NCBI GenBank assembly: GCA_964500015.1
Contig: CAZCMN010000013.1
Coordinates: 1-29,077 of the forward strand
Source of the DNA: Candidatus Woesearchaeota archaeon
GTDB lineage: Archaea > Nanobdellota > Nanobdellia > Pacearchaeales > UBA284
Length of the DNA stretch: 29,077 nucleotides
Direction: 5' to 3'
The position numbers and the translations under genes are program-made. Within the stretch, counting starts at the first letter, position 1. Each line of letters begins with the position of its first letter. The notes beneath the pieces are model-generated. The model searched no databases. It saw only the letters and a list, made by a program, of their open reading frames with translations, and was not told the DNA's origin. Positions 671 through 28,954 of the stretch are shown here, piece after piece.

Positions 671-809
671 ACTAGAAAACAAGAAACCCTGTTTTTTAGC
701 ATGCTAAAACCATCAAAAATTAAAAATTTTTGTGGCGCCAAAAGTAGAGATATTTTTGAGCGAATCAGAAGATTTTTGGCATGCAGAAAAAGTTTTCTTT
801 TTCTAGCAT
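671..809. repeat. cluster of three abutting palindromic repeat units (family described in findings)
   Basis: Unit 1 is 671-701 (reverse orientation, shortened). Unit 2 is 702-762: TGCTAAAACCATCAAAAATTAAAAATTTTTGTGGCGCCAAAAGTAGAGATATTTTTGAGCG. Unit 3 is 763-808: ...GATTTTTGGCATGCAGAAAAAGTTTTCTTTTTCTAGCA. Units 1 and 2 meet head-to-head at the palindrome TTTTAGCATGCTAAAA (694-709). Confidence 0.7.
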
Positions 810-831
810 AATAATAAAAGGAGATAAAAAA

Positions 832-1215
832 ATGGCATCATTTTTTAAAAAATTGTTTGGTGAAAGCGCTGAAGAAACTTCAGATTATATTGAAGTAGAT
901 GTTGGCAGAGATGTTCCTAAGAAAGGAAAGATTCTTTTGAGGCCTTTTGTACTAAGAACTTTTGAAGACACGAATAGGGTTTTAGAAGTTTTGAGAGAAG
1001 GAAGTACAATTGCTTTAATAGATATAAAGCCCCTTAAGAGCAAGGATGTGGTTGAGTTGAAGAGATCAATTTCCAAACTTAAGAAGACTGTCGATGCATT
1101 GGAAGGGAATATTGCGGGATTTGGTGAAAACATAATTCTTGTGACACCACCTTTTGTTGATATTTTCAAGCCAGGCGTTCCAGCTCCAAAAGTTGAACCT
1201 GTATCTGAAATGTAG
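832..1215 (+). CDS. sepF: cell division protein SepF homolog
   Basis: Preferred start is ATG 832, with GGAG at 820-823; the track start at 781 lies inside the repeat cluster. An N-terminal amphipathic MASFFKKLFG resembles a membrane-targeting helix. The SepF/DUF552 core follows (LRPFVLRTFEDTNRVLEVLREGSTIALIDIKPL...GNIAGFGENIILVTPPFVDI). Confidence 0.75.
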   Translation: MASFFKKLFGESAEETSDYIEVDVGRDVPKKGKILLRPFVLRTFEDTNRVLEVLREGSTIALIDIKPLKSKDVVELKRSISKLKKTVDALEGNIAGFGENIILVTPPFVDIFKPGVPAPKVEPVSEM

Positions 1216-1216
1216 G

Positions 1217-1870
1217 ATGGAAAAAGTCTTTGTCAAGGCAGCCTATGATAGACCTTTCACTATTTCTAATAGCCTTAAGGCTCAGTTTGAGAAAATTTCA
1301 GACAAGATTGGATTGATTTCTACTGTTCAGTTTTCTAATCTTTTGCCAATAATTAAAAAACAACTTGAAGGATTAGGAAAACAAGTTTATCTTTCTGGAG
1401 ATGGCACCATTCTAGGATGTAATTCCCTAAACGCTAAAAAAATTTATAATAAAGTAGATGCTTTTCTTTATGTTGGGGACGGAAAATTTCATCCTTTACA
1501 GATCGCTCTGCAGCTTGAGGGAAAGAAGAAGATTTATTTATTAAATCCTAAAGCAGAAAAGATTAATGAATTAGATTGGAAAGAAGTCGAGGCATTTAAA
1601 GTTAGAAAAAAGGTTGCAAAAATTAAGGCATTATCTTCTGAAAAATTAGGATTATTAGTTTCTGTAAAACCTGGACAATGTAATCTTTTAAAAGCCTTGA
1701 AATTTAAAGAAAAGTTTGATAGTCAGAATAAAAAAGTTTACATATTTTTATTTGATAATTTTGATGAAAATCAAACTGAGAATTGGAATAAATTAACTTA
1801 TGTTAATACTGCTTGTCCTGGATTAGCTTTAGATAAAAAGTTTGCTAATTTGAAAGATTTAGAATACTAA
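1217..1870 (+). CDS. dph2: 2-(3-amino-3-carboxypropyl)histidine synthase Dph2, short form lacking the N-terminal domain
   Basis: Start ATG 1217 lies 1 nt after the sepF stop; the track start at 1154 overlaps sepF. Dph2 motifs as I recall them are present: GTILGCN, YVGDGKFHPL, LLVSVKPGQ, NTACPGLALD. Length is only 217 aa versus roughly 330 aa for typical archaeal Dph2. Confidence 0.8.
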   Translation: MEKVFVKAAYDRPFTISNSLKAQFEKISDKIGLISTVQFSNLLPIIKKQLEGLGKQVYLSGDGTILGCNSLNAKKIYNKVDAFLYVGDGKFHPLQIALQLEGKKKIYLLNPKAEKINELDWKEVEAFKVRKKVAKIKALSSEKLGLLVSVKPGQCNLLKALKFKEKFDSQNKKVYIFLFDNFDENQTENWNKLTYVNTACPGLALDKKFANLKDLEY

Positions 1871-2178
1871 TAGGGTAGGTTTAAACCTTCTAGATGATTG
1901 GGGGGCATTAATTTTCTCTTTCTGTCATAATTTGGTCTTGGACCTGGGTTTCCTCGATGACCAAAGTATAGATTTCCGAAGTTATCAACATATGCCTGTT
2001 GCGGTTGCAGCATAGTCTTAATTTCTTCTTCTTTTATTGCAAGTCGATTATATTGGGTTCTAGAAAGAGTTAGAGTATTTTGAGTAAGTTGATCTTTATA
2101 GACTGGTTGGCAAGAATTTGGTTTAATAGCAGGTTGTGTTGTGTTCAATGCAGCAATCAAAAGTAATCCTGAAGTCAT
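1867..2178 (-). CDS. hypothetical small protein with N-terminal hydrophobic (signal-like) segment
   Basis: 103-aa ORF. The N-terminus MTSGLLLIAALNTTQPA is signal-like and the C-terminal half is Pro/Gly/Asn-rich. A TATA-like AAATTTATAAAG lies on the minus strand about 45 nt upstream. No family recognised. Confidence 0.4.
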   Translation of the reverse strand: MTSGLLLIAALNTTQPAIKPNSCQPVYKDQLTQNTLTLSRTQYNRLAIKEEEIKTMLQPQQAYVDNFGNLYFGHRGNPGPRPNYDRKRKLMPPNHLEGLNLPY

Positions 2179-2231
2179 TTTGTTTTCAACTATGCTTTTA
2201 ATCTAATTGGTTGGATTTTTACTTTATAAAT

Positions 2232-2621
2232 TTAACCCCTTAGATCTTCGATTCTTATGATATGCCAGCCAAATTGTGTCTTGCATAAAACAATATCTCC
2301 TTTCTTGTTATCAAAAACAGCTTTTTCAAATTCTTTGACCATTTGTCCTCTTCCAAATTCATCTAGTGAACCTCCGCGTTTTTTTGAAGGACATAAGGAA
2401 AATTGTTCTGCCATTTCGCTAAAAAGTTTATTAGACTTTTGGTGCGCCGAAAATTGTCCATGCTCAAGAATAGGAGTATTCTTGGGCACACCAAAAAGCA
2501 AAGCTTTTTTAGTGTTTTCGTGCGTTGAGAATGATTCTCCATTTTTTATTTTAGCTAAAATCTCTTTTGCTTGTTCTTCTGTTTTCACAAGAATATGACT
2601 TGCACGAGCTTTGTTTGCCAT
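2232..2621 (-). CDS. parvulin-type peptidyl-prolyl cis-trans isomerase (PpiC/Par10-like) with a 36-aa repeat-derived insertion
   Basis: ASHILVK...AKIKNGESF and SLCPSKKRGGSLDEFGRGQMVKEFEKAVF...QFGWHIIRIEDL match the parvulin fold motifs. The protein is 129 aa versus about 93 aa for single-domain parvulins; the excess is residues 32-67. Confidence 0.8.
   Translation of the reverse strand: MANKARASHILVKTEEQAKEILAKIKNGESFSTHENTKKALLFGVPKNTPILEHGQFSAHQKSNKLFSEMAEQFSLCPSKKRGGSLDEFGRGQMVKEFEKAVFDNKKGDIVLCKTQFGWHIIRIEDLRG
2418..2528. repeat. two tandem palindromic repeat units embedded in frame in the parvulin gene
   Basis: Plus strand reads GCTAAAAAGTTTATTAGACTTTTGGTGCGCCGAAAATTGTCCA, then TGCTCAAGAATAGGAGTATTCTTGGGCACACCAAAAAGCAAAGCTTTTTTAGTG. 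Both match the intergenic repeat consensus. The inserted coding block 2421-2528 is 108 nt (36 codons). Confidence 0.7.
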
Positions 2622-2671
2622 ATTTTTTATAAAAACGATAAGGATTTAAATGCTTGTTTTTTATTGAATTG

Positions 2672-3481
2672 ATGTACAAAGAAGAGAAAAAGATAGATAA
2701 TACAATCACTTCAGGAGTCAGAAGATGGTTGCTGAAAAAATATGCTAGGAAGGTTTCTAAATTATTTCATCCTACAACACTGAATGTTATAGGGTTGATA
2801 GGATTTGTTTTTGCAGGAATTTGTTTTGCTCTTTCTAGTTCTAATCGATTTTGGTTAATTGGTGCTGCTTTCGGAGTTTTAGTTCATTTGATTACAGATG
2901 AATTTGATGGAGAAGTAGCAAGAATAAGAAAAGTAACTAGTGAGCATGGATATTATATGGACCATATGCTTGATATGATTGGAATTTTGTTTGTGTTTGT
3001 TGGACTTGGAATTTCTCCTTTAATGCATATTTCTGTAGCATTTGGTATAGTTATCCTGTATTATATAATGTCAATTAGTGTTTTTTTGACAACTTATGTT
3101 GTTGGAAATTTTCAAATTTCTTTTGTTAAGATGGGACCAAGAGAGATAAGACTACTTATCGCCTTATTTGCTCTTCTTTCATTAATAAATTACCCAACAG
3201 TTTTATTTAATTCTGGAATTAGGTGGATTGGGAAAGTTACTTTATATGATTTGGCAGGGTTTGTTTGTTTATTTGTCTTGGTTGTTATTGCAGTACATAC
3301 AATTACTGAAACTATCTTTTATCTAAAGAGATTTGAGAAAACTTATAAGGTTAATTCATTTTTTGAGTATATTCAAAAGACAAATTTTATGAGAAGATTA
3401 GATAAGAAAAGTATTGTATGGAGAGCAAATAGGAGACTAGCGGTTTTAGATAAAAAAATTCGTAATCAAAATTTAAGATGA
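2672..3481 (+). CDS. CDP-alcohol phosphatidyltransferase family protein (archaeal polar-lipid head-group transferase)
   Basis: Signature D-x2-D-G-x2-A-R-x8-G-x3-D-x3-D is present as DEFDGEVARIRKVTSEHGYYMDHMLD. The protein is multi-pass hydrophobic. Start ATG 2672 is preferred over the TTG at 2654. Confidence 0.75.
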   Translation: MYKEEKKIDNTITSGVRRWLLKKYARKVSKLFHPTTLNVIGLIGFVFAGICFALSSSNRFWLIGAAFGVLVHLITDEFDGEVARIRKVTSEHGYYMDHMLDMIGILFVFVGLGISPLMHISVAFGIVILYYIMSISVFLTTYVVGNFQISFVKMGPREIRLLIALFALLSLINYPTVLFNSGIRWIGKVTLYDLAGFVCLFVLVVIAVHTITETIFYLKRFEKTYKVNSFFEYIQKTNFMRRLDKKSIVWRANRRLAVLDKKIRNQNLR

Positions 3482-4029
3482 TATTATTATTTTTAGTTAA
3501 TTGCTTATGGTTATTGCTTCCCGCTTATTTTGCTAATATGTTCGCTTCTTTGTCTAGGAAATTTAAGGGATTTTCTTTTATGGCTTATCCTATAGATTTT
3601 AAAAAAAATCTTGGCAAGAAAAGAATCTTTGGAGATCATAAAACTTTTAGAGGATATTTCTTCGGAGTTTTAGCAGCAATAATTATTTCAATTATACAAT
3701 ATGTTTTATATCAGAATGATTTTTTTATAAAAATCTCTTTTTTTAATTATAATCATTATTCTATTTTGCTTGGATTTTTACTTGGTTTAGGGGCATTATT
3801 AGGAGATTCTATTGGGGCATTTATTAAAAGAAGATTTAATATTGCTCCTGGAAGAAGATTTTTGGTTATAGACCAGATAACTTTTGTAATCGGTGCTTTA
3901 TCTTTATCTTGTTTTATTTTTGTTCCCAATGTTTGGATTTGGTTAGTTTCTATTGTTTTGACTTTCTTTTTGCATATCCTTGTAAATCATATTGCTTTTT
4001 ATTTAAAGATAGACAAAAATAAGTGGTAA
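3478..4029 (+). CDS. carS: CDP-archaeol synthase (CarS, DUF46 family)
   Basis: Polytopic membrane protein with GDHKTFRGYFFG, GDSIGAFIKRR and VIDQ motifs characteristic of CarS. ATGA start/stop overlap with the upstream transferase (3478-3481). Confidence 0.8.
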   Translation: MILLFLVNCLWLLLPAYFANMFASLSRKFKGFSFMAYPIDFKKNLGKKRIFGDHKTFRGYFFGVLAAIIISIIQYVLYQNDFFIKISFFNYNHYSILLGFLLGLGALLGDSIGAFIKRRFNIAPGRRFLVIDQITFVIGALSLSCFIFVPNVWIWLVSIVLTFFLHILVNHIAFYLKIDKNKW

Positions 4030-4031
4030 AA

Positions 4032-4643
4032 ATGGCAAAAAATTTAACTAAAAAAGAAAAATTTAATGATTTTTCACTTAAATTAGGAGATGTTTTGAAA
4101 AAATTAGGAATCTCTCCTAATGGTTGGACTTTTATCTCTTTAATTTTAGCTATTGTTGCTGTAATTTTTATTATTAAAAATAATCTGATTGTTGGAGCAA
4201 TTTTCTTTTTAATCTCAATTATTTTAGATATATTTGACGGAGCTGTTGCTCGAGCAACAAATAAAACAACAAAATTTGGTGGTTTTTTTGATACGGTTGT
4301 AGACAGATATGTAGAATCTTTGATATTCTTTTCATTACTTTTTATTTCTCTGCCAAATTTATTTCTTCCAATTTATGTTTGGCTTTTTATTTTATTATTT
4401 GGATCATTAATGACTACTTATATCAAGGCAGCTGCAAGAGAAAAGGGCTTGGTTAATGAGGATTTAAGAGGAGGATTTTTAGGAAGATCTGAAAGAACTG
4501 TGATTCTTTTTATTGGGTTGGTAATTGGAAATTTCTTTCCAATTGTTTTATCTTGGATAATATTTATCTTAGCAATTTTAGTTAATTTAGCAGCTATCCA
4601 AAGATTTTTTTTAGCACGAAAGCAATCCAGCTTGAGAAAGTAG
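4032..4643 (+). CDS. CDP-alcohol phosphatidyltransferase family protein (second copy)
   Basis: Signature DIFDGAVARATNKTTKFGGFFDTVVDR, about 6 predicted TM helices. ATG 4032 is preferred over the GTG at 4023, which overlaps the carS stop. Confidence 0.75.
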   Translation: MAKNLTKKEKFNDFSLKLGDVLKKLGISPNGWTFISLILAIVAVIFIIKNNLIVGAIFFLISIILDIFDGAVARATNKTTKFGGFFDTVVDRYVESLIFFSLLFISLPNLFLPIYVWLFILLFGSLMTTYIKAAAREKGLVNEDLRGGFLGRSERTVILFIGLVIGNFFPIVLSWIIFILAILVNLAAIQRFFLARKQSSLRK

Positions 4644-5268
4644 AGGTAAGGTGAACTGTTCTAGAACTTAATTTTCCTTTTGCAATTGTTCTCCTTTTTA
4701 ATATTCCTTCTTTGAACTCTTTTAAGTTTTTTGCCTCACATTCAGTATAAGCTTTTCCAACTTCAGATAAAGAATGAGCATCTGATCCTGCACTAGCAGC
4801 TTTGTTTTTTAGTTTTTTATATAGCAAGAATGCTTTTTTGTTCTTATTTCTTGTTCTCCTTGAATTTAAGATTTCTATAGCATCTACCTTTTTTGCATAG
4901 TTTTTGATTTCTTCAAAAGAATGTTTTTTTTCAAATGGATGTGCTAAAATTGCTATTCCATTTTGTTTTTTTATTTCTTTAAGAATATGGGCAAAAGAAT
5001 TTTGATTATAATAATCTGACTTGATTTCTTTTTTTAAAAATAATCCTATAAGTTCAACACCTTCTTTGCATTTAATTTCTTCTCCTAAAATTAATTGCAT
5101 CTTAAGCTTTTTTGCAGCTTGAATTGCATTCTGCCAGCCTTCTGCATTATTATGGTCTGTTATTGCAATTCCATCTAAACCCCGATCTTTGGCTTTTTGG
5201 AGTATTTTAGATGGAGAACAGAGACAGTCAAAAGAATATTTTGTATGGACATGTAAATCGAGTTTCAT
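4594..5268 (-). CDS. PHP-domain metal-dependent phosphoesterase
   Basis: MKLDLHVHTKYS, IAITDHN, ILAHPF and GSDAHSLSEVG are the PHP (polymerase and histidinol phosphatase) His/Asp motifs. Its 3' end overlaps the convergent transferase gene by 50 nt (4594-4643). Confidence 0.75.
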   Translation of the reverse strand: MKLDLHVHTKYSFDCLCSPSKILQKAKDRGLDGIAITDHNNAEGWQNAIQAAKKLKMQLILGEEIKCKEGVELIGLFLKKEIKSDYYNQNSFAHILKEIKKQNGIAILAHPFEKKHSFEEIKNYAKKVDAIEILNSRRTRNKNKKAFLLYKKLKNKAASAGSDAHSLSEVGKAYTECEAKNLKEFKEGILKRRTIAKGKLSSRTVHLTSTFSSWIAFVLKKIFG

Positions 5269-5270
5269 TT

Positions 5271-5322
5271 CAGCAAAAACTCCTTTTTTTGGTGTGCCAA
5301 AGATATTGTTGATTTTTGAGCA
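5271..5322. repeat. palindromic repeat unit
   Basis: CAGCAAAAACTCCTTTTTTTGGTGTGCCAAAGATATTGTTGATTTTTGAGCA, starting 3 nt upstream of the PHP start codon. Confidence 0.65.
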
Positions 5323-5349
5323 TTTTAGTTTTCATTTTTTAATTAGAGA

Positions 5350-5444
5350 CGCCCGGACCAAGAATTGAACTTGGATATCCTTGCGGAAACAACCTTTTTG
5401 ACTTTCGGTTCCAGGGTTGCGCCTTACCATTGGGCCATCCGGGC
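5350..5444 (-). tRNA. tRNA-Ser(GGA) with a 13-nt intron 3' of the anticodon
   Basis: Minus-strand read: GCCCGGA TG GCCC AATGGTA AGGC G CAACC CTGGAA[CCGAAAGTCAAAA]A GGTTG TTTCCGCAAGGATAT CCAAG TTCAATT CTTGG TCCGGGC G. The acceptor is a perfect 7 bp. The 15-nt variable arm and G73 fit Ser. Anticodon-stem closure requires removing about 13 nt at the canonical 37/38 position. I could not draw a strict bulge-helix-bulge. Confidence 0.8.
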
Positions 5445-5445
5445 A

Positions 5446-5499
5446 TGCTCAAAAAACAGGGTTTTTTGGCATACAGAAAACGTTTAGCGTTTTCTAGTA
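5446..5499. repeat. palindromic repeat unit
   Basis: TGCTCAAAAAACAGGGTTTTTTGGCATACAGAAAACGTTTAGCGTTTTCTAGTA, abutting the 5' end of tRNA-Ser. Confidence 0.7.
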
Positions 5500-5666
5500 T
5501 AATTATTTTAATTAAATTCTAGTTAAAAAGCTTGTGATATTTTTTATCTTAAATTTCTTCTGGGCTTTTATTATCTTATTATATATCCTGTTTCATCTAA
5601 AAGTTTAAAAACTTAAACTTCGAGGGATTAAATAAACTTAAATTTAAATTTTAAAAAAGAGATAAA

Positions 5667-6083
5667 ATGAATGTAATGACAATTCCCCCTCTTGATGAAG
5701 AATCTTTGAAAAGCTTTTTTTCAGGGTTTTTAGCAGCATATCAAAGAATGGTTTCAGAAAATTTTTCTAGTGATGCAAAGAAATTGAGATTATTTAGTTC
5801 AATGCCTGCTAAAATCGAGCTTTTTATAGATAAAGACCATAGTTATGCTACTGCAGTTTTATCCAGCAATTCACCATCCGGGATTTCTTGTGAAAAATTC
5901 CAAGATGAGTTAATGTGCATTGCTACTGCAAACTCTAAAAAGCATGTCTATGGAAATATGGGTAAATTTTTGTATTTGTTTCAGATAAAAGCAAAAACCT
6001 TTTTAGATTGGAATCCAGAAGCTTTTGCAAAAGATTTAATCCATTATGAGCTGTTGCAATTTGAGAAATCTAGACTTAACTAA
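5667..6083 (+). CDS. hypothetical protein
   Basis: 138-aa ORF with no competing frame and AT-rich upstream DNA. No motif recognised. Confidence 0.5.
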   Translation: MNVMTIPPLDEESLKSFFSGFLAAYQRMVSENFSSDAKKLRLFSSMPAKIELFIDKDHSYATAVLSSNSPSGISCEKFQDELMCIATANSKKHVYGNMGKFLYLFQIKAKTFLDWNPEAFAKDLIHYELLQFEKSRLN

Positions 6084-6177
6084 CTTTATATATAAGTTTA
6101 GAAGATTATTGTAAAAATTTTGTGAGCTTTTGGTTATCCCATGCTTTGTTTTTTAATTTATAGCTTAAAATAAGTTT

Positions 6178-6882: not shown

Positions 6883-6958
6883 TTTGATGTATTTTTAATT
6901 TGTAAATTTATAGTATGATTCTATTTAGTGGTTCTGGTGCTTCAAATCTCAAGTACAA

Positions 6959-7013
6959 CGCTAAAAAAGCATGGCTTTTTGGCGTGCCGAAAAACTTCTG
7001 TTTTTCCAGCACG
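6959..7013. repeat. palindromic repeat unit
   Basis: CGCTAAAAAAGCATGGCTTTTTGGCGTGCCGAAAAACTTCTGTTTTTCCAGCACG, about 77 nt upstream of the tmk start. Confidence 0.7.
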
Positions 7014-7082
7014 TTGCAGAACCAAAATTTGGTTTTGTATTTATTTATATGCTATTACTTTTTATTTATTTAGTTCAAGATA

Positions 7083-7136
7083 TGCTAAAAAAATTTAATT
7101 TTTTGGCATACCGGAAATGTCATTCATTTCCGAGTA
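7083..7136. repeat. palindromic repeat unit overlapping the 3' end of glyA
   Basis: TGCTAAAAAAATTTAATTTTTTGGCATACCGGAAATGTCATTCATTTCCGAGTA. The reverse strand encodes the last GlyA residues [13 protein letters not shown] and the stop codon. Confidence 0.7.
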
Positions 7137-8357: not shown

Positions 8358-8430
8358 TTTTTTGTATGCATTTTAAGTTTAGGTAAGCATAAAATATTTA
8401 TTTCTTGCAGGATCTGCTCAGAGCAAACAA

Positions 8431-8483
8431 TGCTCGAAAAATAGGATTTTTCGGCATGTCAAAATCTGTTCGATTTTAACACG
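8431..8483. repeat. palindromic repeat unit
   Basis: TGCTCGAAAAATAGGATTTTTCGGCATGTCAAAATCTGTTCGATTTTAACACG, 74 nt upstream of the glyA start. An 11-nt palindrome TGCTCAGAGCA lies at 8415-8425. Confidence 0.65.
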
Positions 8484-8527
8484 TTGTCCTGCGCAATTAG
8501 TTTTGATTATTAACTCTTCTTCTCGTT

Positions 8528-11276: not shown

Positions 11277-11325
11277 GCCCCCATAGTTTAGCAGATAGAA
11301 CTAATTTTGAACCTCGGTAAAAGTT
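11277..11325 (+). tRNA. interrupted tRNA gene, 5' segment (acceptor 5' strand, D-arm, anticodon-stem 5' strand)
   Basis: GCCCCCA TA GTTT AGCAGATA GAAC T AATTT TGAACCTCGGTAA AAGTT. U8, A9, G10:C25, A14 and A21 are in place. No T-arm or acceptor 3' strand follows locally. The matching 3' strand lies at 12196-12202. Confidence 0.5.
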
Positions 11326-11336
11326 TATAAAGTCGA

Positions 11337-12080
11337 ATGTTCTTTTTATATATGGCCATAAGTATTCAAACAAGAAACAAGTTTATCGCTTTAATAAAAA
11401 AGGGAAAATCTCTCAATGAAATTACAAAAATAACTGGAGTTGGTAAAACAACAGTGTACTATCATATGCGTAAAATCAGGGGTAGAAGAAATAAACCGAT
11501 AACAATTAAAAAAGATAATTTGGAATTGTTAGGAGAAGTTTTAGGATTTTTTGCCGGTGATGGCAGTTTAGTCAATCGGCCGGATAAATGGGATTATAGG
11601 GTAAAATTTTTTTTAAATATAAAAGAGGTTTTGGTAGTCAAAAATTATAATGACTCTATCTCTAGATTTATTGGAAAACCAGCAACCTTATTCAATAGAG
11701 GTTCGATGACAATAATCCAAATTACTTCTAAAGACTTTTGTGAATTTATAAAAGATTATTTAAAATTTGGAAAAAGCAAGACAAAGACAATAGAATTAAA
11801 AAATAAAGATTTATTAAAAAATATTAGATTCACTATTGGATTTATGAAGGGATTAATTGATTCTGATGGATATGTAAGGAAAGATAGAAAGGAGATTTAT
11901 TTTGGTTCAATATCCAGAAAACTGGCAAATGATTTTATCAGTGGACTGAATCTTTTGAGTATACGATTTAAAGAATATATTCAAAAAAGGCAGAATTGTA
12001 ATGATTTTTATAAGATAAGGATTAGTGGTGTAGAAGTAGATAGATTTAATAAAATTATAAAACCTATTAAAGCATCATAA
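11337..12080 (+). CDS. LAGLIDADG-family homing endonuclease with N-terminal helix-turn-helix
   Basis: Two LAGLIDADG motifs (LGFFAGDGSL and IGFMKGLIDSDGYV) are about 100 residues apart. N-terminal HTH is SLNEITKITGVGKTTVYYHMRKI. An alternative start is ATG 11352. Confidence 0.8.
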   Translation: MFFLYMAISIQTRNKFIALIKKGKSLNEITKITGVGKTTVYYHMRKIRGRRNKPITIKKDNLELLGEVLGFFAGDGSLVNRPDKWDYRVKFFLNIKEVLVVKNYNDSISRFIGKPATLFNRGSMTIIQITSKDFCEFIKDYLKFGKSKTKTIELKNKDLLKNIRFTIGFMKGLIDSDGYVRKDRKEIYFGSISRKLANDFISGLNLLSIRFKEYIQKRQNCNDFYKIRISGVEVDRFNKIIKPIKAS

Positions 12081-12086
12081 TGTTAT

Positions 12087-12158
12087 GGGCACGTGGTATA
12101 ATGGATAGTATAAAACCTTGCGGAGGTTTTGATTCAGGTTCGAATCCTGACGCGCCCG
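12087..12158 (+). tRNA. tRNA-Arg(GCG)
   Basis: GGGCACG TG GTAT AATGGATA GTAT A AAACC TTGCGGA GGTTT TGAT TCAGG TTCGAAT CCTGA CGCGCCC G. It forms a 72-nt cloverleaf with a canonical T-loop and G18G19. There is one A5:C68 acceptor mismatch and a wobble-rich D-stem. Confidence 0.8.
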
Positions 12159-12167
12159 TTTTTTAAT

Positions 12168-12203
12168 AAGTTTGTGACCGAGGTGCAATTCCTCGTGGGG
12201 GCG
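12168..12203 (+). tRNA. interrupted tRNA gene, 3' segment (anticodon-stem 3' strand, T-arm, acceptor 3' strand)
   Basis: AAGTT TGTGAC CGAGG TGCAATT CCTCG TGGGGGC G. TGGGGGC is the perfect 7/7 complement of GCCCCCA at 11277-11283. AAGTT pairs with AATTT at 11303-11307 (one G:U). The T-loop is non-canonical (G at position 55). Confidence 0.5.
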
Positions 12204-12224
12204 TTTCGAATCCTGATGTGGGCG
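12204..12224 (+). pseudogene. orphan tRNA 3' fragment (T-loop, T-stem 3' strand, acceptor 3' strand)
   Basis: TTTCGAATCCTGATGTGGGCG shares TTCGAATCCTGA with the tRNA-Arg 3' end (12140-12151) but carries a different acceptor strand (TGTGGGC). No T-stem 5' strand lies upstream. Confidence 0.5.
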
Positions 12225-16025: not shown

Positions 16026-16622
16026 ATGATTCTAATAATTAATACATGTAAAGAAAAACTGCATTATCTTGAATTTGTTAGGCCAATTGAAGAGATTGTA
16101 AAAAAAGAGAGCAAGTTTTTCACCAAACATTATTTTGAAGTTAATTTAAAAGACTTGGAAAAAGCTGAGAAAGTGATTATCTGTGGAACAGCTTTAAAAG
16201 ATTTTGAATATGACCGAGAAATGATGGCTTTTTCATGGCTTAGAGGTTTTGAAAAGCCGATTTTGGGAATTTGTGCTGGAATGCAGATTATTGTAAAGAC
16301 TTTTGATGGAAATTTAAGTGTCCTTGAAAACTCTGAGTTTTTGGGACGCCAAAAATCCCGAGGATTTTTTAGCGAGAAAAAAGAGATAGGTTTAATTAAA
16401 GTTAAATTTGATAAAGATTTTTTAGAAATTAAGAAAGGAGAAGTTGAAGCTTATGCTTTGCATAAGTCTGATGTAATTGGTTTAGGAAAAGATATTGAGG
16501 TTTATGGGAAATCAAAAAAAGGAATTCAGGCTATTAAGCTGAAAAGTAAGGAAATTTATGGGGTAATGTTTCATCCTGAAGCTAGAAATAGGGAAATTGT
16601 TGAAAATTTTTGCAAGAAGTAA
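16026..16622 (+). CDS. class I glutamine amidotransferase-like protein with an 18-aa repeat-derived insertion
   Basis: Nucleophile elbow PILGICAGMQ and the C-terminal His-Glu pair in VMFHPE are present. Residues 100-117 (LENSEFLGRQKSRGFFSE) are encoded by a repeat unit. Confidence 0.7.
   Translation: MILIINTCKEKLHYLEFVRPIEEIVKKESKFFTKHYFEVNLKDLEKAEKVIICGTALKDFEYDREMMAFSWLRGFEKPILGICAGMQIIVKTFDGNLSVLENSEFLGRQKSRGFFSEKKEIGLIKVKFDKDFLEIKKGEVEAYALHKSDVIGLGKDIEVYGKSKKGIQAIKLKSKEIYGVMFHPEARNREIVENFCKK
16323..16375. repeat. palindromic repeat unit embedded in frame in the GATase gene (reverse orientation)
   Basis: The reverse complement reads TCGCTAAAAAATCCTCGGGATTTTTGGCGTCCCAAAAACTCAGAGTTTTCAAG, matching the intergenic units. 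It starts exactly at codon 100 and spans 18 codons. Confidence 0.7.
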
Positions 16623-17046: not shown

Positions 17047-17079
17047 GTTTATCCTCCGTCTTTGTATTTAATGAGTTTA

Positions 17080-17140
17080 TGCTCGAAAATTCAAAAGAAT
17101 TTTCGGACATCACCAAAAACTTTATGGTTTTTGATGAGCA
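17080..17140. repeat. palindromic repeat unit
   Basis: TGCTCGAAAATTCAAAAGAATTTTCGGACATCACCAAAAACTTTATGGTTTTTGATGAGCA, between the albA start and the rps17e stop. Confidence 0.65.
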
Positions 17141-18172: not shown

Positions 18173-18249
18173 GATGTTCTATATCTAAAATTGTATTTAA
18201 ATCTTATTTTTTTAGTTAAATTTAAATACAATTTTTCCCTTTATGATTA

Positions 18250-18301
18250 TGCTAGAAAATGTGAAAACATTTTCTGCAAAGTAAAAACTGTTCGTTTTCA
18301 C
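18250..18301. repeat. palindromic repeat unit
   Basis: TGCTAGAAAATGTGAAAACATTTTCTGCAAAGTAAAAACTGTTCGTTTTCAC, ending 17 nt before the pilus ATPase start. Confidence 0.6.
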
Positions 18302-22230: not shown

Positions 22231-22278
22231 TTCTCGAGCACACCAAAATAGGAAATTTAGCTGTGTCCAGAATTTTGG
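22231..22278. repeat. degenerate palindromic repeat unit
   Basis: TTCTCGAGCACACCAAAATAGGAAATTTAGCTGTGTCCAGAATTTTGG. The GAGCACACCAAAA core resembles the unit at 2485-2497. This is the weakest member. Confidence 0.4.
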
Positions 22279-23024: not shown

Positions 23025-23116
23025 ATATTCTACAAATTGAATCTATTTTTAAGCTTTTCCATATATAGTCTCTTTTAGGAGGATATATCATTTAATACTC
23101 CTAGTTCATATAACTA

Positions 23117-23138
23117 TTATCAAGTAACAACTTGATAA
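23117..23138. promoter_or_regulatory. candidate operator: perfect inverted repeat TTATCAAGT-N4-ACTTGATAA
   Basis: Arms are 9 bp with no mismatch. The site lies in the divergent intergenic region, 35-56 nt upstream of ATG 23173 and next to an A/T-rich TATA-like stretch. Its TATCA...TGATA half-sites recall TrmB-family operators. Confidence 0.5.
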
Positions 23139-23172
23139 ATAAAATAAGTAAATTTGAAGGAGAAAAATAAAA

Positions 23173-23628: not shown

Positions 23629-23630
23629 AA

Positions 23631-25883
23631 ATGTGCGGAATAGGTGCGATATATGGTAAGAAAATTCCAAAAAAGGAATTTTGGATTAAGAGAAGCCTAG
23701 ATGTAATCCCACATAGGGGATACGCTTTAAATGAGTCTATGGTATTTGATAATTGTGCTCTCGGTGTAAATAGATTGCAAATAGTTGATAGAGATAATGC
23801 CAAACAACCCTTAGAAAACGAAGATAAGACTATTTTTGTTGTTTTGAATGGGGAAGTATTCAACCATGAACAATTAAGAGAAGAGTTGACAAAAAAAGGA
23901 CACAAATTCAAAACAAAATCTGATACAGAGGTTCTTGTTCACTTATGGGAAGAATACAAAGAGGAAATGGTTCATAAGATAGATTCTGAGATGTTTGCCC
24001 TTTTTGTTTATGACAAGAAGAAAAATATATTCTTTGTTGCAAGAGATCCTTATGGAGTTAAACCTCTGTATTATGCAGTAGATTGTCTAGGAAATTATCA
24101 TTTTGCATCTGAAATAAAACAATTAACTCAATTCAAAGAAATAGATGAAGTAAAATTCTTTCCTCAAGGGCACTACATGCTAGATGGAAAACTAATAAAA
24201 TATCATGAAATACCCAAAGAAAACGATAAAATTGAGGAAAATGAAGGAATAATAATCAAGAAATTAAGAAGATTATTTGATGAGGCAGTTAAAAAAAGAG
24301 TAAATACCGACTTGCCTGTCGGAGTTTTCTTTAGTGGGGGTCTTGATAGTGCTGCAATTTTAGCTACAGCAGTAAAATACCACAATAATGTTACTGCCTT
24401 TATTGTTGGATACCCAAATTCTCCCGACGTAGTTGTCGCCAAAAAATACTGCGAAGAGAATAATATCCCCCTAGTTTATTTTAATCCACCTGCAGAAGAA
24501 GAATTAGCAAAGATTATTCCCGAAATAGTCTACATAACTGAAAGTTTTGAGCCAAACATGATTAGGCAATCTGCTGTTTCATACTACATCTCAAAAATAG
24601 CAAGGCAATACAATTTTAGAATCATCTTGTGTGGAGAAGGTCCAGATGAAATCTTCGCAGGCTATCCAGAATTTAAAAATTGTCTAAATGATAAAGGAAT
24701 ATCCAATAAGATTTACACTTTTATTAAGAACCTTCCAAGAACCCAATTTCAGAGAGTTGATAGAACTTCAATGCAGTTTACTTTAGAGGTTAGGGTTCCT
24801 TTTTTTGATACTGCCTTTGCAGATTATGCAATAAGAATTCCAAGTAAATTGAAAGTTAAAACAATCAATGGAAAGAAAGTCACCAAGTGGATCTTAAGAG
24901 AAGCTATGAAAGACAGACTACCCAATTACATCGCCAATAGGGAAAAAGTTGTTTTAAGTGAAGGTGCTGGATACAAAGGAAACCAATTAGTCGGCGGATT
25001 GTTTTTTGATATTGTTCAAAAAAGGATTAATGAAAATGAATTTCAAAAAATTAAGAATGATTATCCAAAATGGAATATAACAAACAAAGAAGTTGCATAT
25101 TATTTTAAGCTATATGCTAAACATTTGTTTACAAAAGCAGAGTTCAATCAAGAAAGACCATTAGTTAATGCTATTGATAGTATTAAAGATGAAGAAATTG
25201 AAGAAAAAGCAGAAAAAATTTTGATTGGCATGAAAAAATATTCTCTTTTTGATAGAAAAGAAACTAAGAAATTTAATGATTTTCAAGAATTGAAAGGCTT
25301 GGTTGTTAACCAAATTAAAAATAACTTGAAGATACAGGTAGTGGGATATTGGGGAATAGAAAAGGAAAATGCAGATGAAAAGGATATAACTGCCTTGGAT
25401 AATCTTAGAACTTTCAAGAATATTATTCTGAAAAACTATCCTAATGTTGAAATTCTTTTGATTTTAACTGATATTCATGGAGAAGCAAATGAAGTAAGTG
25501 AAGAAATAAGAAAGAAATATTTTGGTTTTATTAAAGAAATATCTGAAGAATATGGTTTCAAAGTAATGTTCTTAAGTAAATTATGGAAAGAGAATAAAAT
25601 CGATTTAAAGGGTATCTTAAAATTAGAGAATCTAAATAATGTTCCAGAGATAGTTGTTAAATCTGGTTTTAAACACTATCTTGGTAAAAACAAGTTAGAT
25701 GGTGCAAGGCTATATTCCTTAATTTCAAAGCACGATTGTCAGTTTATAGAAAAGAAATTTCAAAATGCAATATTCTTCACATATAACAGTGCAGATTGGA
25801 AAGAACTTTTACCAAAACTTCCAACAATTTCACTTTTTCCTCTAGAGAAAGGGGAGAGAATCAAACCATGGCATATAAAATAG
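23631..25883 (+). CDS. asnB: asparagine synthase (glutamine-hydrolysing) family amidotransferase fused to an uncharacterised C-terminal domain of about 230 aa
   Basis: N-terminal MCGI (Ntn Cys2), NGEVFNHEQLREEL, and the PP-loop VGVFFSGGLDSAAI with the synthetase domain run to about residue 510. Residues of about 520-750 (YWGIEKENADE...ILLILTDIHGEANEV...) match nothing I recognise. The start is 3 nt after the lipoprotein stop. Confidence 0.85.
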   Translation: MCGIGAIYGKKIPKKEFWIKRSLDVIPHRGYALNESMVFDNCALGVNRLQIVDRDNAKQPLENEDKTIFVVLNGEVFNHEQLREELTKKGHKFKTKSDTEVLVHLWEEYKEEMVHKIDSEMFALFVYDKKKNIFFVARDPYGVKPLYYAVDCLGNYHFASEIKQLTQFKEIDEVKFFPQGHYMLDGKLIKYHEIPKENDKIEENEGIIIKKLRRLFDEAVKKRVNTDLPVGVFFSGGLDSAAILATAVKYHNNVTAFIVGYPNSPDVVVAKKYCEENNIPLVYFNPPAEEELAKIIPEIVYITESFEPNMIRQSAVSYYISKIARQYNFRIILCGEGPDEIFAGYPEFKNCLNDKGISNKIYTFIKNLPRTQFQRVDRTSMQFTLEVRVPFFDTAFADYAIRIPSKLKVKTINGKKVTKWILREAMKDRLPNYIANREKVVLSEGAGYKGNQLVGGLFFDIVQKRINENEFQKIKNDYPKWNITNKEVAYYFKLYAKHLFTKAEFNQERPLVNAIDSIKDEEIEEKAEKILIGMKKYSLFDRKETKKFNDFQELKGLVVNQIKNNLKIQVVGYWGIEKENADEKDITALDNLRTFKNIILKNYPNVEILLILTDIHGEANEVSEEIRKKYFGFIKEISEEYGFKVMFLSKLWKENKIDLKGILKLENLNNVPEIVVKSGFKHYLGKNKLDGARLYSLISKHDCQFIEKKFQNAIFFTYNSADWKELLPKLPTISLFPLEKGERIKPWHIK

Positions 25884-25932
25884 TGCAGTAAAATAGCCAA
25901 ATTCTTTTATATGGCTGATTTCTGTTAAATTT

Positions 25933-27222
25933 ATGATTCCGGCACTGCCTGACTGGACTATTTATCCTATCTTATTTATAGGATTTTTTGTATCTTTTTT
26001 CTACTTGATAGTCTTGTTGAAAAGAGAGGAAGTTATTCCTAAAGCAAAGAGATTTCCAGATGCTTCTTTTGTCATTCCTGCAAAAAATGTTGAGATTTGC
26101 ATTGAAAAATGCATTTTGGCCATATTGAAACAAGATTATCCTGGAAAAATTTATGTTGTTGTTGTGAATGATGCAAGCACAGACAGAACTGAAGAAATAA
26201 TAAAAAATCTAGCTAAGAAATATAATTCAGCTAAAAGGAAGATTATTTTGATTAATAGGAAAAGAAGCCAGGGAAAAAAAGCACCTGCATTAAATGAAGG
26301 AATAAGGTATGTTCTTAATAAGTTGAATACAGAAATTGTCTGCCCAATAGATGCAGACACTTTTGTTACAAAGGATGTTCTGAGAAATGCAGTTGCTCAA
26401 TTTGAGCATGATCCAAGAGTTGCTGCAGCAACTGCTCCTTTAATTCCGATTCAGAATAATTTTATCTTAAGATTGCAATATGTTGAATATGTGATGTCTA
26501 ATTTTTTTAGGGATTTACTTGGAAAAGCAGATGCTTTATGTACTACTCCTGCTTTCACTGTTTTTAGGGCAAAGTTTTTCAGAGAAGCAGGGTTGTATAA
26601 TGAAACTACTTGGACAGAAGATTTTGATATGGCTTTGAAAGTCAAAGCGAATTTCTACAAAATTGCTTATCTAAAAGATAAGATCTATTTTATTGCCCCT
26701 GAAAACCTAAAGAAATTAAAGATTGAGAGAGTCAGATGGGGGCATGGGACATGCCAAGCTTTATTTGAAGATTATCCTTTTTTATTGTCTCCAAAATATG
26801 GTGCTGTTGGAACTTTTTTTCTTCCTGTAACTATTGTTTTAGTCTTAAGTTTAGTTATGCTGTCTTTCATATTTTTAATATATAGCACAGTTCATTGGGT
26901 AGAGTTATTTGTTCATAATCTTTTTGTTGGCTGGAAGCCTTCTTTCAGTTTAAGTCATCTAAATTTTAATACGTTAGTATTCCAGGCAAGTGTTTTTTTA
27001 TCAGATTCAAGAGTTTTGTTTGGAATCTTGGGAATTTTGATTTCAGTAATCTTTTTTGTTTTTGCAAGAAATTACAGCAAGGAGAAAATTAGTATAATTG
27101 ATTATCTGATTTTTTCTATTCCTTACAGGCTTTTTTTATCTTATACCCAGTTGGAGGGTCTTGTAAAGTATGTCTTTCGGATGAAGATGAGCTGGGGAGA
27201 GATGCACAGCAAGAAAAAGTAA
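25933..27222 (+). CDS. processive family-2 glycosyltransferase (PgaC/IcaA/NodC-like membrane synthase)
   Basis: N-terminal TM helix, then VVVNDASTD, PIDADT (DxD), TWTEDFDM (ED) and ERVRWGHG (Q/RxxRW-type motif). Four or more C-terminal TM helices follow. This is the architecture of polymerising beta-glycan synthases. Confidence 0.8.
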   Translation: MIPALPDWTIYPILFIGFFVSFFYLIVLLKREEVIPKAKRFPDASFVIPAKNVEICIEKCILAILKQDYPGKIYVVVVNDASTDRTEEIIKNLAKKYNSAKRKIILINRKRSQGKKAPALNEGIRYVLNKLNTEIVCPIDADTFVTKDVLRNAVAQFEHDPRVAAATAPLIPIQNNFILRLQYVEYVMSNFFRDLLGKADALCTTPAFTVFRAKFFREAGLYNETTWTEDFDMALKVKANFYKIAYLKDKIYFIAPENLKKLKIERVRWGHGTCQALFEDYPFLLSPKYGAVGTFFLPVTIVLVLSLVMLSFIFLIYSTVHWVELFVHNLFVGWKPSFSLSHLNFNTLVFQASVFLSDSRVLFGILGILISVIFFVFARNYSKEKISIIDYLIFSIPYRLFLSYTQLEGLVKYVFRMKMSWGEMHSKKK

Positions 27223-27271
27223 GGTTTTTTAGCACAGTTAAATTTATAATTGCTTCAAGCAAGTGATTAAG

Positions 27272-27964
27272 ATGGATAAAAGAAAAAAAATTAAGGAAGT
27301 AAATGAAGAGACTAGACAAACTAGTAAATTACTGGTTGCAGCGGTTATTGCTGCGATAGTTTTGTTTATTTTTGGTTTATTATTGGGAAATTACATTATC
27401 TCTTCTAGATTGCAGGTATTTCAACAGAGTGAACAAAATTTATTAACGCAATTGATGGGTTTGGAAATAAGAGATCAGATTTTAGACAAAAGCGAATTAT
27501 GCAAATTAGGTTGGGAAGATGTTTGGCAGGAAAAAGTTGAATTAGGGAAGATGCTTACTTCTTTAGAAGTAAGGCTTGGAAAGAAAAATTCAGATGTTAT
27601 GTCTAGAAAGGAAGTTTATGAACTTATTGAGATAAAAACCTTGTTCTTGGTTCAAGAAATCAAGGACAATTGTCATGAAGATTTTGATATTATTTTGTTT
27701 TTTTATACTAATAAGGATAATGATCCAAAAGGAAGTGCTGGAGGATCAGAAGACCAGGGTTTGATCCTAGATCAAGTTGTTTTCAGTCATAATGAACAGG
27801 GAAATGGAAAAAAAGTCCATGTTTTTGCTTTTGATGTTAATTCTAAAAATCCTGCAACAAAAGCATTAGTTTCTAAATACTATGTTGAGAAAGTTCCAAC
27901 ACTGATAATCAATAGAGAGAAGTATGATTATCTTGTTCAGGCAGACATTGAAAAATTGGTTTAA
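27272..27964 (+). CDS. hypothetical membrane-anchored protein
   Basis: ATG 27272 is preferred over the GTG at 27263. There is a single N-terminal TM helix (LLVAAVIAAIVLFIFGLLLG). The C-terminal part (HVFAFDVNS...VEKVPTLIINREKY) is thioredoxin-fold-like but lacks CxxC. Confidence 0.5.
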   Translation: MDKRKKIKEVNEETRQTSKLLVAAVIAAIVLFIFGLLLGNYIISSRLQVFQQSEQNLLTQLMGLEIRDQILDKSELCKLGWEDVWQEKVELGKMLTSLEVRLGKKNSDVMSRKEVYELIEIKTLFLVQEIKDNCHEDFDIILFFYTNKDNDPKGSAGGSEDQGLILDQVVFSHNEQGNGKKVHVFAFDVNSKNPATKALVSKYYVEKVPTLIINREKYDYLVQADIEKLV

Positions 27965-28051
27965 AATCTCTTTCTTTTTTAAAAAATTTATTTAGATAAT
28001 CATCTAAAACAGAACCATAACTTTTAAATATTGTCAAAAACATCAGCTTTT

Positions 28052-28627
28052 ATGGATTTTGAATTTGGCTGTGAAGAATGTGGAACTGAAAACGAAGACC
28101 TTTTTGATACTATTTTAGATAACAAATCAATGAGATTATGTGAAAGGTGCGCCAGGACAAACAATGCATTAATTCTTAATGAAGAAAGGAGCAAAATGAG
28201 AGAAAAGTGGAATTCAAGAAGCAGTAAAAAACCCGAACAGACATACAGAGAAGAGCCAAGAGTCACATTACAAGGGTTGTGGGATAGATACAAGCAGAAA
28301 ATGGGGGAAAGAAATACTCTTGAGAAACAGAGAAAAGTCGCGGTTTTAGAAGAAAATAAATTTTTAGAGGATTTAGAAAAGCAAAAAAAACTCGAAAATA
28401 AAGAAATTATCCAAGCTGTTGACAGTGATTTTAATTTAGAATCAAATGTTGAAGAAGAAAAATCTTTTAATGAAGAAGCATCCAAAAAAATAAATATCAA
28501 GGATTTTTTTAAGCAAACATTTAAATTCTTAAAAGGAAAGGATAAAAAAGAGTCTGTGGAGGATTCTGAAGAAATTCCCCAGATGATCCCTGACTTGATT
28601 GTGGAGGATAAAAAAAATGAAAATTAG
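28052..28627 (+). CDS. hypothetical Zn-ribbon protein with highly charged low-complexity tail
   Basis: ATG 28052 is preferred over the TTG at 28031. CEECG...CERC forms a CxxC-N24-CxxC ribbon. The remainder is Lys/Glu-rich. Confidence 0.5.
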   Translation: MDFEFGCEECGTENEDLFDTILDNKSMRLCERCARTNNALILNEERSKMREKWNSRSSKKPEQTYREEPRVTLQGLWDRYKQKMGERNTLEKQRKVAVLEENKFLEDLEKQKKLENKEIIQAVDSDFNLESNVEEEKSFNEEASKKINIKDFFKQTFKFLKGKDKKESVEDSEEIPQMIPDLIVEDKKNEN

Positions 28628-28880
28628 TATACTAAAGAAAGAAAAAAATGAATTAGAAGTAGAAATAGATAATCTGACTGTAGCAGAACTTTTAAGAAAT
28701 GAGCTATGGGAAGATGACGGCATTGAGTTAAGTGCTTGGAGGAGAGACAATCCTTCAAAAGATCCGATTCTAGTTATAAAAACTAAAGGAAAAGATGCAA
28801 AAAAAGCATTATTTGATGCTATTGGAAGAATTCAGGACAAAAATAAAGAGATTATTAAAGAATTTAAAAAGGTTTTCTAA
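28617..28880 (+). CDS. rpoL: DNA-directed RNA polymerase subunit L (Rpo11)
   Basis: From ATG 28617: MKISILKKEKNELEVEIDNLTVAELLRNELWEDDGIELSAWRRDNPSKDPILVIKTKGKDAKKALFDAIGRI. This fits the Rpo11/RpoL pattern (block L-x-I-x-x-E-x-x-T-x-x-N-L-L-R, then the H/N-P-x-x-x-x-P-x-L-x-I-x-T segment). Confidence 0.8.
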   Translation: MKISILKKEKNELEVEIDNLTVAELLRNELWEDDGIELSAWRRDNPSKDPILVIKTKGKDAKKALFDAIGRIQDKNKEIIKEFKKVF

Positions 28881-28907
28881 ATTCAAAATGATAAATCTTT
28901 TTAATTA

Positions 28908-28954
28908 TGCTAGAAAAACAGGGTTTTTCTGCACAGCAAAAACTGGAGGTTTTT
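28908..28954. repeat. palindromic repeat unit
   Basis: TGCTAGAAAAACAGGGTTTTTCTGCACAGCAAAAACTGGAGGTTTTT. It shares TGCT.(A/G)AAAAACAGGGTTTTT with the 5446 copy and ends 7 nt before the L41e start. Confidence 0.65.

Follow-up and report, generated by a model that had tools for sequence, protein, structure and literature searches.

Paired mirror-image hairpins in the genome of a Pacearchaeota-like archaeon form a new family of small palindromic repeats, probably mobile and non-autonomous

Here we describe a family of short palindromic repeats dispersed through the window, a 29-kb stretch of DNA (positions 1-29,077 of contig CAZCMN010000013.1; G+C 30.7%) from a small Pacearchaeota-like DPANN archaeon. 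The repeat unit, of about 54 nt, pairs two hairpins, each about 27 nt long, which adjoin foot to foot as mirror images, and it also builds composites of 107-108 bp. Our analyses give strong, although not conclusive, support to the view that these repeats constitute a family of small, non-autonomous mobile DNA elements. Searches of the literature by sequence string and by topic retrieved neither a description of the family nor a paper giving its sequence, in agreement with an earlier reading of this DNA made from its letters alone (the sequence-only reading), in which the repeat had been considered apparently unnamed. It is a new family of small palindromic and, very probably, non-autonomous mobile repeats. 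The known elements nearest to it are REP/REPIN sequences, the Rickettsia palindromic elements (RPEs) and, in Haloquadratum, the palindrome-associated transposable elements (PATEs) and small mobile repeats (SMRs), of which the SMRs and RPEs were compared with it by description only.

The existence of a dispersed repeat family in the window is confirmed. With up to three mismatches, the core TTTTTGGCRYRCCRAAAA matched 24 times on both strands, corresponding to 12 sites where about 0.4 would be expected, while the composition-matched control that the sequence-only reading had proposed, run as 100 dinucleotide shuffles, gave a mean of 0.83 core matches and a maximum of 6, so that none of the shuffles reached the observed count. 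A covariance model of the single hairpin (R1, built from 56 hairpins at 45 loci), applied to the window with filters off and a threshold of E<0.01, identified 15 hairpins at 10 loci, or 11 loci counting a weaker pair of copies in the parvulin gene, and the elements sum to about 740 nt, or 2.5% of the window. The dispersed palindromic family proposed from the letters is thus borne out by the shuffles, the R1 census and the covariation described below; as to its 12 loci, all R1 matches in the window fall within them and none lies elsewhere, but position 22231-22278 returned no R1 match even at E<=10 and is not supported as a copy. Some of the original boundaries also required correction. The three abutting units proposed at 671-809 are instead a weak hairpin-like sequence followed by a discrete four-hairpin composite of 107 nt, and the two units placed at 2418-2528 are indeed two units of 54 nt, but with an exact extent of 108 nt (2417-2524) and one nested inside the other.

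The unit has the layout TGCTCAAAAA-tip-TTTTTGGCA | YGCCAAAAA-tip-TTTTTGAGCR, in which each hairpin consists of a 3-bp TGC/GCA foot, a bulged T on the outer arm, an A5/T5 stem and a variable yet complementary tip. Terminal inverted repeats are present (TGCTCAAAAA / TTTTTGAGCA), and across the 56 hairpins the foot reads (A/G)TGCT...GGCA(C/T), with no GTAG or CGTC tetranucleotide. In an alignment of all copies anchored at the core, the junction between arms, TTTTTAGCAT|GCTAAAA, resembles the core TTTTTGGCAT|GCCAAAA, from which it follows that the single hairpin is the true building block and that the unit of 52-56 nt is made of two. In the double unit the left hairpin matches R1 on the plus strand and the right hairpin on the minus strand, and the bulged base therefore lies on the outer arms. 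The unit had been expected to fold as one long hairpin; it does fold, but as two adjacent hairpins in every copy, with z-scores mostly between -2 and -6.4 and the weakest value at 5270-5324 (z -1.3).

Conservation of the folded form was evident from covariation in a set of hairpins picked by invariant letters only (foot GC, A4 and T4), which comprised 56 distinct 28-mers from 45 loci of the window and other genomes. Under the structure.(((.((((((((...))))))))))). paired states occupied 97.4% of cells compared with 88.3% in shuffles, and cells with changes on both sides numbered 57 against 11.4 expected; in neither case did any of 500 shuffles reach the observed value, and sliding the partner by one to three columns as a control lowered pairing to 28-55%. 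Pair 7-25 alternates between AU (21) and GC (19), and the pair adjoining the A-run between A-U (45) and G-C (11), none being broken in either; the foot (TGC/GCA or CGC/GCG) and two tip pairs, with four pair types, also co-vary. Position 5 is a conserved unpaired T, and loop positions avoid pairing. The covariation therefore indicates that a hairpin, formed in single-stranded DNA or in RNA, has been conserved, and not just a word in duplex DNA.

The evidence for mobility comes from close relatives, whose compared loci carry labels such as L131. The named homologs nearest to the window proteins belong to Candidatus Pacearchaeota, and three sets of relatives, reached via parvulin (L113-L117), tmk (L130-L132) and a glutamine amidotransferase (GATase; L137-L140), share the gene order of the window, with a DNA identity to it of about 72-90% (about 75-85% for L130, L131, L132, L137 and L139). 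These last five loci hold no R1 hairpin at E<0.01 in about 64 kb, and L115 has three in 4.9 kb, at sites other than those of the window, compared with 15 in the 29 kb of the window. Precise extra segments distinguish the window, namely 108 nt in the parvulin gene, 54 nt in the GATase gene, 54 nt at the glyA 3' end and 107 nt before sepF, and the unit of presence or absence is the double hairpin of 54 nt. At all shared sites the element is absent from L131 and L137. The spacers tell the same story: that between glyA and tmk measures 220 nt in the window versus 0-8 nt in L131 and L137, that between thyX and glyA 167 nt versus 10 nt in the same two loci, and that between rps17e and alba 98 nt versus 10 nt in L137, while the copy at 18249-18301 accounts for about 50 nt extra relative to L137. 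Because relatives pack the same genes with spacers of 0-10 nt or overlaps and without the element, it does not behave as a conserved regulatory site, and a lineage-specific spread of mobile DNA fits these observations. The composite before sepF is, moreover, about 80% identical to positions 375-495 of L065, from another Pacearchaeota metagenome-assembled genome (MAG), with sharp ends at (A)TGCTAAAAC and TTTTCTAGCA and unrelated flanks. [quoted passage not shown]

Coding-sequence overlap, also claimed at the outset, proved correct in three genes. The parvulin gene carries an in-frame insert in which an outer 54-nt unit (2417-2460 plus 2515-2524) holds an inner one (2461-2514) in the loop of its second hairpin. 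DNA alignment shows it to be absent from L113, L114 and L115, and it is also absent from L131; the insertion is clean between TTCTCAA and AAATGG, with the count of A conserved and no duplication. The protein has 129 residues versus about 82-109, mostly 91-94, in the other single-domain homologs listed, and the same gap appears against solved parvulin structures. In an AlphaFold model the parvulin fold is confident and the insert (residues 30-61) scores below 50 in predicted local distance difference (pLDDT), so the inserted segment is, as modelled, disordered and tolerated inside the protein. The second case is a GATase resembling GuaA subunit A, of 198 residues versus about 182, in which exactly 18 residues are missing from the four closest relatives (77-81% identical), a gap also seen against structure 2lxn. 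At the third site, protein alignment shows that glyA relatives end in KFPLYPELNKL* and that the window protein has a different ending, the DNA junction being CTA^TAT without duplication. All coding inserts are multiples of three and free of stops (54 and 54+54 nt), which favours read-through translation, as in the RPEs of Rickettsia, against splicing. A case like that of glyA occurs at L071 (5449-6680), where an element separates a nucleotidyltransferase/HEPN gene pair (families assigned by eye) that adjoins an IS200-type TnpA gene; the nucleotidyltransferase ends ...EMLKN* inside the element, whose right arm contains the ATG of the next gene.

Wherever the empty site is known no target duplication was found (parvulin TTCTCAA|AAATGG, glyA CTA|TAT and, in the haloarchaeon Haloplanus, GGGTG|CGCC). 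The flanks usually read ...A^TGCT...AGCA^T, at A/T-rich sites resembling an arm of the element, and the left flanks (GATA, AGCA, TCCA, ATTT, CAAA, GGCA, ACAA, ATTA and TTTA) have only a terminal A and a following T as recurring letters. A TA duplication of the IS630/mariner MITE type was considered and rejected: glyA alone agrees with it, and only if the ends are chosen in one way, while the sites in parvulin, at sepF, at the tRNA and in haloarchaea do not. New copies adjoin or enter the hairpins of older ones, generating chains, and three new hairpins have an arm that can be aligned to ancestral sequence (ATGTTTAAAAA / ATGCTCAAAAA, TATCCAGAATTA / TACTCGGAAATG and CTTTTACTT / GTTTTCACTT); at 18249-18301 it is the 3' arm of the second hairpin that does so. 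Such arm-like targets might reflect the recognition of arm-like sequence or copying driven by microhomology, chance being hard to separate from either in DNA of 30% GC.

The mechanism of movement we infer from these features. An enzyme supplied in trans would recognise the hairpins as folded single-stranded DNA, the likeliest candidate being a Y1/HUH transposase like those of IS200/IS605, by analogy with REP/REPIN and PATE elements; handling of this type is proposed because of the hairpin ends, the bulged base, the lack of target duplication and the insertion beside or inside the element's own hairpins. Alternatively, arm-like sequences would exchange copies through template switching or gene conversion. 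As observed, copies survive mainly in spacers, and in genes only where they are a multiple of three long and leave the reading frame open; there a surviving copy adds a floppy peptide loop or else replaces the C-terminus and gives a stop codon.

Several points weigh against a mobile family of this kind. The mobilising enzyme was not found: a Pfam search of 20 open reading frames (ORFs) in the window detected no transposase, only housekeeping proteins and a LAGLIDADG endonuclease, and tblastn over 930 kb of collected DNA with approximate IS608 TnpA and IS200-like consensus queries, a weak negative, returned a single IS200-type TnpA (L071, 6087..6545, minus strand), whose GC-rich end hairpins are unlike the element. 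The left flanks contain no fixed target of 4-6 nt of the IS200/IS605 type. Tips of the window copies differ by about 30%, unlike a recent burst from one master copy, and the copy counts cover the 29 kb of the window within its source genome. Finally, the foot and A/T stem are very strongly conserved across phyla, which could instead reflect recognition by a conserved host factor.

Among other explanations, an enzyme-free local turnover, in which fold-back or template-switch errors combine with gene conversion between A/T-rich arm-like sequences, appears unlikely, although it survives best. [quoted passage not shown]

We consider improbable that the repeats are host regulatory sites, such as operators, promoter elements or bidirectional terminators kept by selection and read by a dimeric factor or by RNA polymerase. 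In eight copies the distance to a start codon or tRNA 5' end is 0-77 nt, both the tRNA-Ser 5' end and the PHP ATG have the core about 27 nt away, runs of T5-T7 occur on both strands, and GGAG(G) tips are found 6-12 nt before an ATG in the window (5271-5323, at 12 nt from the PHP ATG, and 28907-28960) and in L115, L005 and L021. On the other hand, L131 and L137 run the same genes element-free with their short spacers, other window genes, tmk among them, show the usual TATA-like boxes at about 25-30 nt ahead of the ATG, copies also occupy coding sequence, a tRNA T-loop and a tnpB gene, and the tips co-vary, which a binding site in duplex DNA does not need. A promoter core at -27 from the tRNA and PHP starts was rejected on account of the copy-free relatives and the TATA-like boxes, and nearness to start codons is mostly a consequence of the short spacers; as the relatives manage without the copies, these are not needed there, and a role in transcription or translation control is less plausible than the sequence-only reading, which had put it level with selfish spread, had judged. 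Orthologous conservation upstream of rpl41e was likewise rejected: the variant present at 28907-28960, ...GAGG(A)TTTTTATTGAAATG, is found again in L021 ahead of a ferredoxin-like gene unrelated to rpl41e, and it therefore represents a shared element variant and not a conserved site.

A mobile element may nevertheless affect expression where it lands. In the window, GGAG(G)-tip variants that end at an ATG precede rpl41e and the PHP gene; L115 has one before parvulin, its PHP gene having no such leader, and in L005 and L021 they stand before other genes. Judged from these letters they may provide a ribosome-binding site and start context to the following gene. Archaeal RNA polymerase terminates at oligo-T, and with T-runs on both strands of the elements their insertions would probably break former operons.

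An element acting at the RNA level, either a small structured RNA gene or an intron spliced for instance by the archaeal bulge-helix-bulge (BHB) endonuclease, is very improbable. The strong hairpin covariation would agree with it, as would a 52-nt copy in the T-loop of a tRNA-Gly(CCC) in L034 (3434-3485; TTCAAA|CGCTC...GAGCA|TCCCGG), since this tRNA is recognisable only without the copy; yet inspection, made without a dedicated BHB scanner, allowed no such motif to be drawn at the L034 junctions, where the termini form one continuous helix, splicing does not require coding inserts to be stop-free multiples of three, no Rfam family matched the element even at E<=1, and only one of 121 double hairpins, that of L034, interrupts a tRNA. 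A BHB intron was rejected on the inspection of those junctions and the lengths of the coding inserts, and a CRISPR array does not fit copies of unequal sequence that are scattered across 28 kb and touch one another at the foot. The tRNA-Gly(CCC) is called by ARAGORN only after removal of the element, and its acceptor stem then has two mismatches. At L032 (7730-7935), 3' of an intron-containing tRNA, two tandem units of 99 nt each comprise a spacer, TTCAAA, an element and the last 14 nt of the tRNA (TCCCAGTCCCAGCG), the element having the same T-loop position and orientation as in L034.

For mobile DNA, the closest described behaviour, by analogy, is that of the SMRs and PATEs of Haloquadratum walsbyi. 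The SMRs (HqIRS42, HqIRS43 and HqIRS55) measure 103-122 bp, have inverted terminal repeats, make no target duplication, are too short to encode a protein and insert into palindromes of IS605-type elements and PATEs, their mobilisation having been called enigmatic (PMC3119063). They share with the element an archaeal host, a non-coding nature, composites of similar size (107-108 nt), nested insertion and, in haloarchaea, insertion into a hairpin 3' of tnpB; but the basic unit of the element is 54 bp, SMRs were described in one species, and the likeness is one of description, not of sequence. For PATEs, 52-bp forms made of the termini alone have been described and may still be mobile (PMC3119063), and IS200/IS605 is the most widespread insertion sequence family in archaea (PMC13343696). 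PATE and IS200/IS605 ends resemble the element in their end hairpins and lack of target duplication, whereas PATEs lack inverted terminal repeats and their palindromes are direct copies, the hairpins of the element are mirror images, and the element has no fixed target oligonucleotide of the IS200/IS605 type. Likewise, the IS200/tnpB elements of L071, L144 and haloarchaeal tnpB ends have different, GC-rich hairpins, and the Haloplanus copy was inserted into such an end and is not part of one.

REP, BIME and REPIN sequences with their REP-associated tyrosine transposase (RAYT) are also short, bulged, imperfect palindromes in many, mostly extragenic copies, with an inverted hairpin pair as the mobile unit, chains of alternating orientation and no target duplication. 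The element differs in lacking a GTAG/CGTC tag, its foot being TGCT/AGCA, in its archaeal hosts, with no RAYT found in the 29-kb window or in the 930 kb of collected DNA, and in a hairpin common to several phyla, as REPs are species-specific. RPEs add a surface peptide segment to proteins. Palindromic repeats of a reduced genome, they resemble the element in lying in frame within conserved protein genes (here parvulin, GATase and the glyA tail), but RPEs are of about 100-150 bp and alphaproteobacterial (PMC10969869), whereas the element has a unit of 54 bp and is archaeal and mostly intergenic, and kinship in sequence between the two is not expected. The Y1 subclasses associated with REPs have been reported from bacteria only (PMC6006769). 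Classical MITEs moved by DDE transposases (Sulfolobus SM, Correia) are similarly short, non-coding, multicopy, bounded by terminal inverted repeats and able to supply expression signals; unlike the element at its sites of known empty state, they make target-site duplications.

The distribution of the family was surveyed by a pattern scan with one genome per species, which recovered at least 112 loci. Among the matches listed, true double hairpins occur mostly in archaeal MAGs, on the one side Woesearchaeota, Pacearchaeota, Nanoarchaeota, Iainarchaeum and an unclassified DeMMO3 archaeon and on the other three Methanolliviera MAGs, Euryarchaeota SM23-78 and MAGs labelled Methanosarcinales; some MAG labels may be wrong, as L054 shares 68% DNA identity with a window gene. 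In those genomes the conserved hairpin is often one member of a chain of three to six different hairpins. Again among the matches listed, most loci have one to five R1 hairpins per 8 kb, which makes the genome of the window unusually dense, and a long open frame contains the site in only four or five of some 70 archaeal cases. Viral contigs gave 12 pattern matches and no true double hairpin, a phage collection gave no match, and an Rfam search of the window, at gathering thresholds and at E<=1, returned only three tRNAs and no family for the element.

In plasmids the search returned haloarchaea only, with copies in cultured strains scoring 43 and 36 bits with R1. The 52-nt Haloplanus element is inserted at GGGTG^CGCC in a hairpin just downstream of a tnpB remnant; the host region scored as the tnpB 3' end in other haloarchaeal plasmids, and other haloarchaeal tnpB loci are element-free. 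At L141 (1476-1527) and L143 (about 726-780) the element lies in a hairpin region just 3' of tnpB, which is probably the guide-RNA and right-end region, while by eye a Natribaculum copy (L142, 1499-1526) interrupts a tnpB-like N-terminal coding region. The haloarchaeal copies have a first hairpin with the foot kept and a GC-rich stem.

Conservation of the hairpin from DPANN to Halobacteria points to shared recognition machinery. We advance only tentatively, as an idea with somewhat less than even chances, that one hairpin-pair family spans much of Archaea (DPANN, Methanoliparia and Halobacteria), targeting hairpins without duplication and moved by a Y1/HUH enzyme not yet linked to such archaeal repeats or by a conserved host factor, and that in DPANN it actively rewrites genes by contributing peptide loops, C-termini and stops, ribosome-binding sites and starts, and by splitting operons. 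The genomes of DPANN archaea are tiny and compact, and mobile elements are considered to be few in them. A lineage in which about one element locus has been added per 3 kb, with none present in its close relatives, offers a natural experiment on selfish DNA in a reduced genome, with spacer expansion, protein editing and, probably, operon breakage as its outcomes. The element explains odd gene-model lengths (129 versus about 93 residues for parvulin, 198 versus about 182 for the GATase) and an altered C-terminus, and may explain MAG contig breaks; the haloarchaeal copies, for their part, sit in cultured, genetically tractable organisms. The very wide archaeal range, the dense lineage-specific spread in a DPANN genome and the RPE-like in-frame insertions make the family notable.

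Table 1. Copies of the element, individual R1 hairpins and one adjoining tRNA in the window.
Feature	Position	Context	Score
Weak hairpin-like sequence, TACTAGAAAACAAG..CTGTTTTTTAGCA	669..702	aligns with L131 TACTGGAGAACAAG..CTGTTTTCTGGTTG; composite inserted beside it	R1 8.1 bits
107-nt composite, four hairpin modules (TGCTAAAACC...TTTTTCTAGCA)	702..808	upstream of sepF; absent in L131	
In-frame insertion in parvulin gene, 108 nt (36 codons)	2417..2524	ORF 2232..2621, minus strand	
Double hairpin	5271..5323	between tRNA-Ser 3' end and PHP ATG (5268); absent in L115 and L116	R1 5294-5323, 22 bits
tRNA, context only	5350..5444	minus strand; elements on both sides	Rfam tRNA model 45.4 bits
Double hairpin	5445..5499	abuts tRNA-Ser 5' end	best R1 match, 42.3 bits; -18.9 kcal/mol, z -6.4
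Double hairpin	6958..7013	glyA-tmk spacer	R1 39 and 23.2 bits
54-nt unit in last glyA codons	7083..7136	replaces C-terminal tail and supplies stop (TAA in hairpin loop)	R1 40.1 bits
Double hairpin	8430..8484	thyX-glyA spacer; inside outer inverted repeat TTGCGCAGGA..TCCTGCAAG	R1 38.3 bits
In-frame insertion in GATase gene, 54 nt (18 codons), encoding SVLENSEFLGRQKSRGFF	16317..16376	ORF 16026..16622, plus strand; ends uncertain by a few nt	
Double hairpin	17079..17140	rps17e 3' end to alba start	R1 20.5 bits; z -5.1
Degenerate double hairpin	18249..18301	divergent RIO kinase/pilus ATPase spacer	R1 21.6 bits
Double hairpin	28907..28960	second hairpin, with GGAGG tip, runs into rpl41e ATG (28961)	R1 37.6 bits
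R1 hairpins, first part	713-732, 735-763, 781-809, 2488-2515, 5294-5323, 5445-5472, 6958-6985, 6984-7012		E<0.01
R1 hairpins, second part	7082-7109, 8430-8457, 16320-16347, 16346-16375, 17079-17110, 18249-18279, 28907-28934		E<0.01
Weaker R1 partner hairpins	2416-2445, 2460-2489, 5474-5497, 17114-17134, 28938-28954		

The copies are set among archaeal housekeeping genes, which include those for prefoldin, SepF, diphthamide synthesis, parvulin, CDP-alcohol transferases and CarS, a PHP protein, tmk, glyA, thyX, an EndoQ-like nuclease, Alba and S17e, and a RIO kinase, a type IV pilus ATPase, AsnB, a GT2 glycosyltransferase and RpoL. The extra spacer DNA of the window (167 and 220 nt) exceeds the hairpins alone and includes TATA-like stretches.

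Around the tRNA that has elements on both sides, L115 bears a different copy about 50 nt farther upstream than that at 5445-5499. ARAGORN reports the tRNA as a 98-nt tRNA-Val(AAC) at 5348-5445; by eye the anticodon loop is CTGGAAC, with GGA (Ser) and a long extra arm or an intron. On the minus strand, ahead of the PHP gene (5272-5340), the sequence ATGAAAAC... resembles the gene's own start and opens an upstream frame of 21 codons through the element, whose TGA overlaps the true PHP ATG.

In Woesearchaeota Bin_274 (L025, L038, L042, L046, L050, L077 and L103) a composite of about 230 nt contains the conserved hairpin among at least six in all. On seven contigs it is located at, or close to, an end of the displayed locus, in some cases the contig end as well, and it may break the assembly of this MAG.

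Finally, at 11277-12206 of the window a resident tRNA-Arg(GCG) gene (ortholog in L137, 4990-5061) seems to be interrupted by about 860 nt of inserted DNA carrying a LAGLIDADG endonuclease ORF (11337..12080) and a second, intact tRNA-Arg(GCG) (12086-12159). Joining the outer parts in silico restored the tRNA call, and ACCTCGG (11314-11320) is complementary to CCGAGGT (12181-12187). The locus resembles a homing cassette equipped with a replacement tRNA of its own, or else a giant intron.

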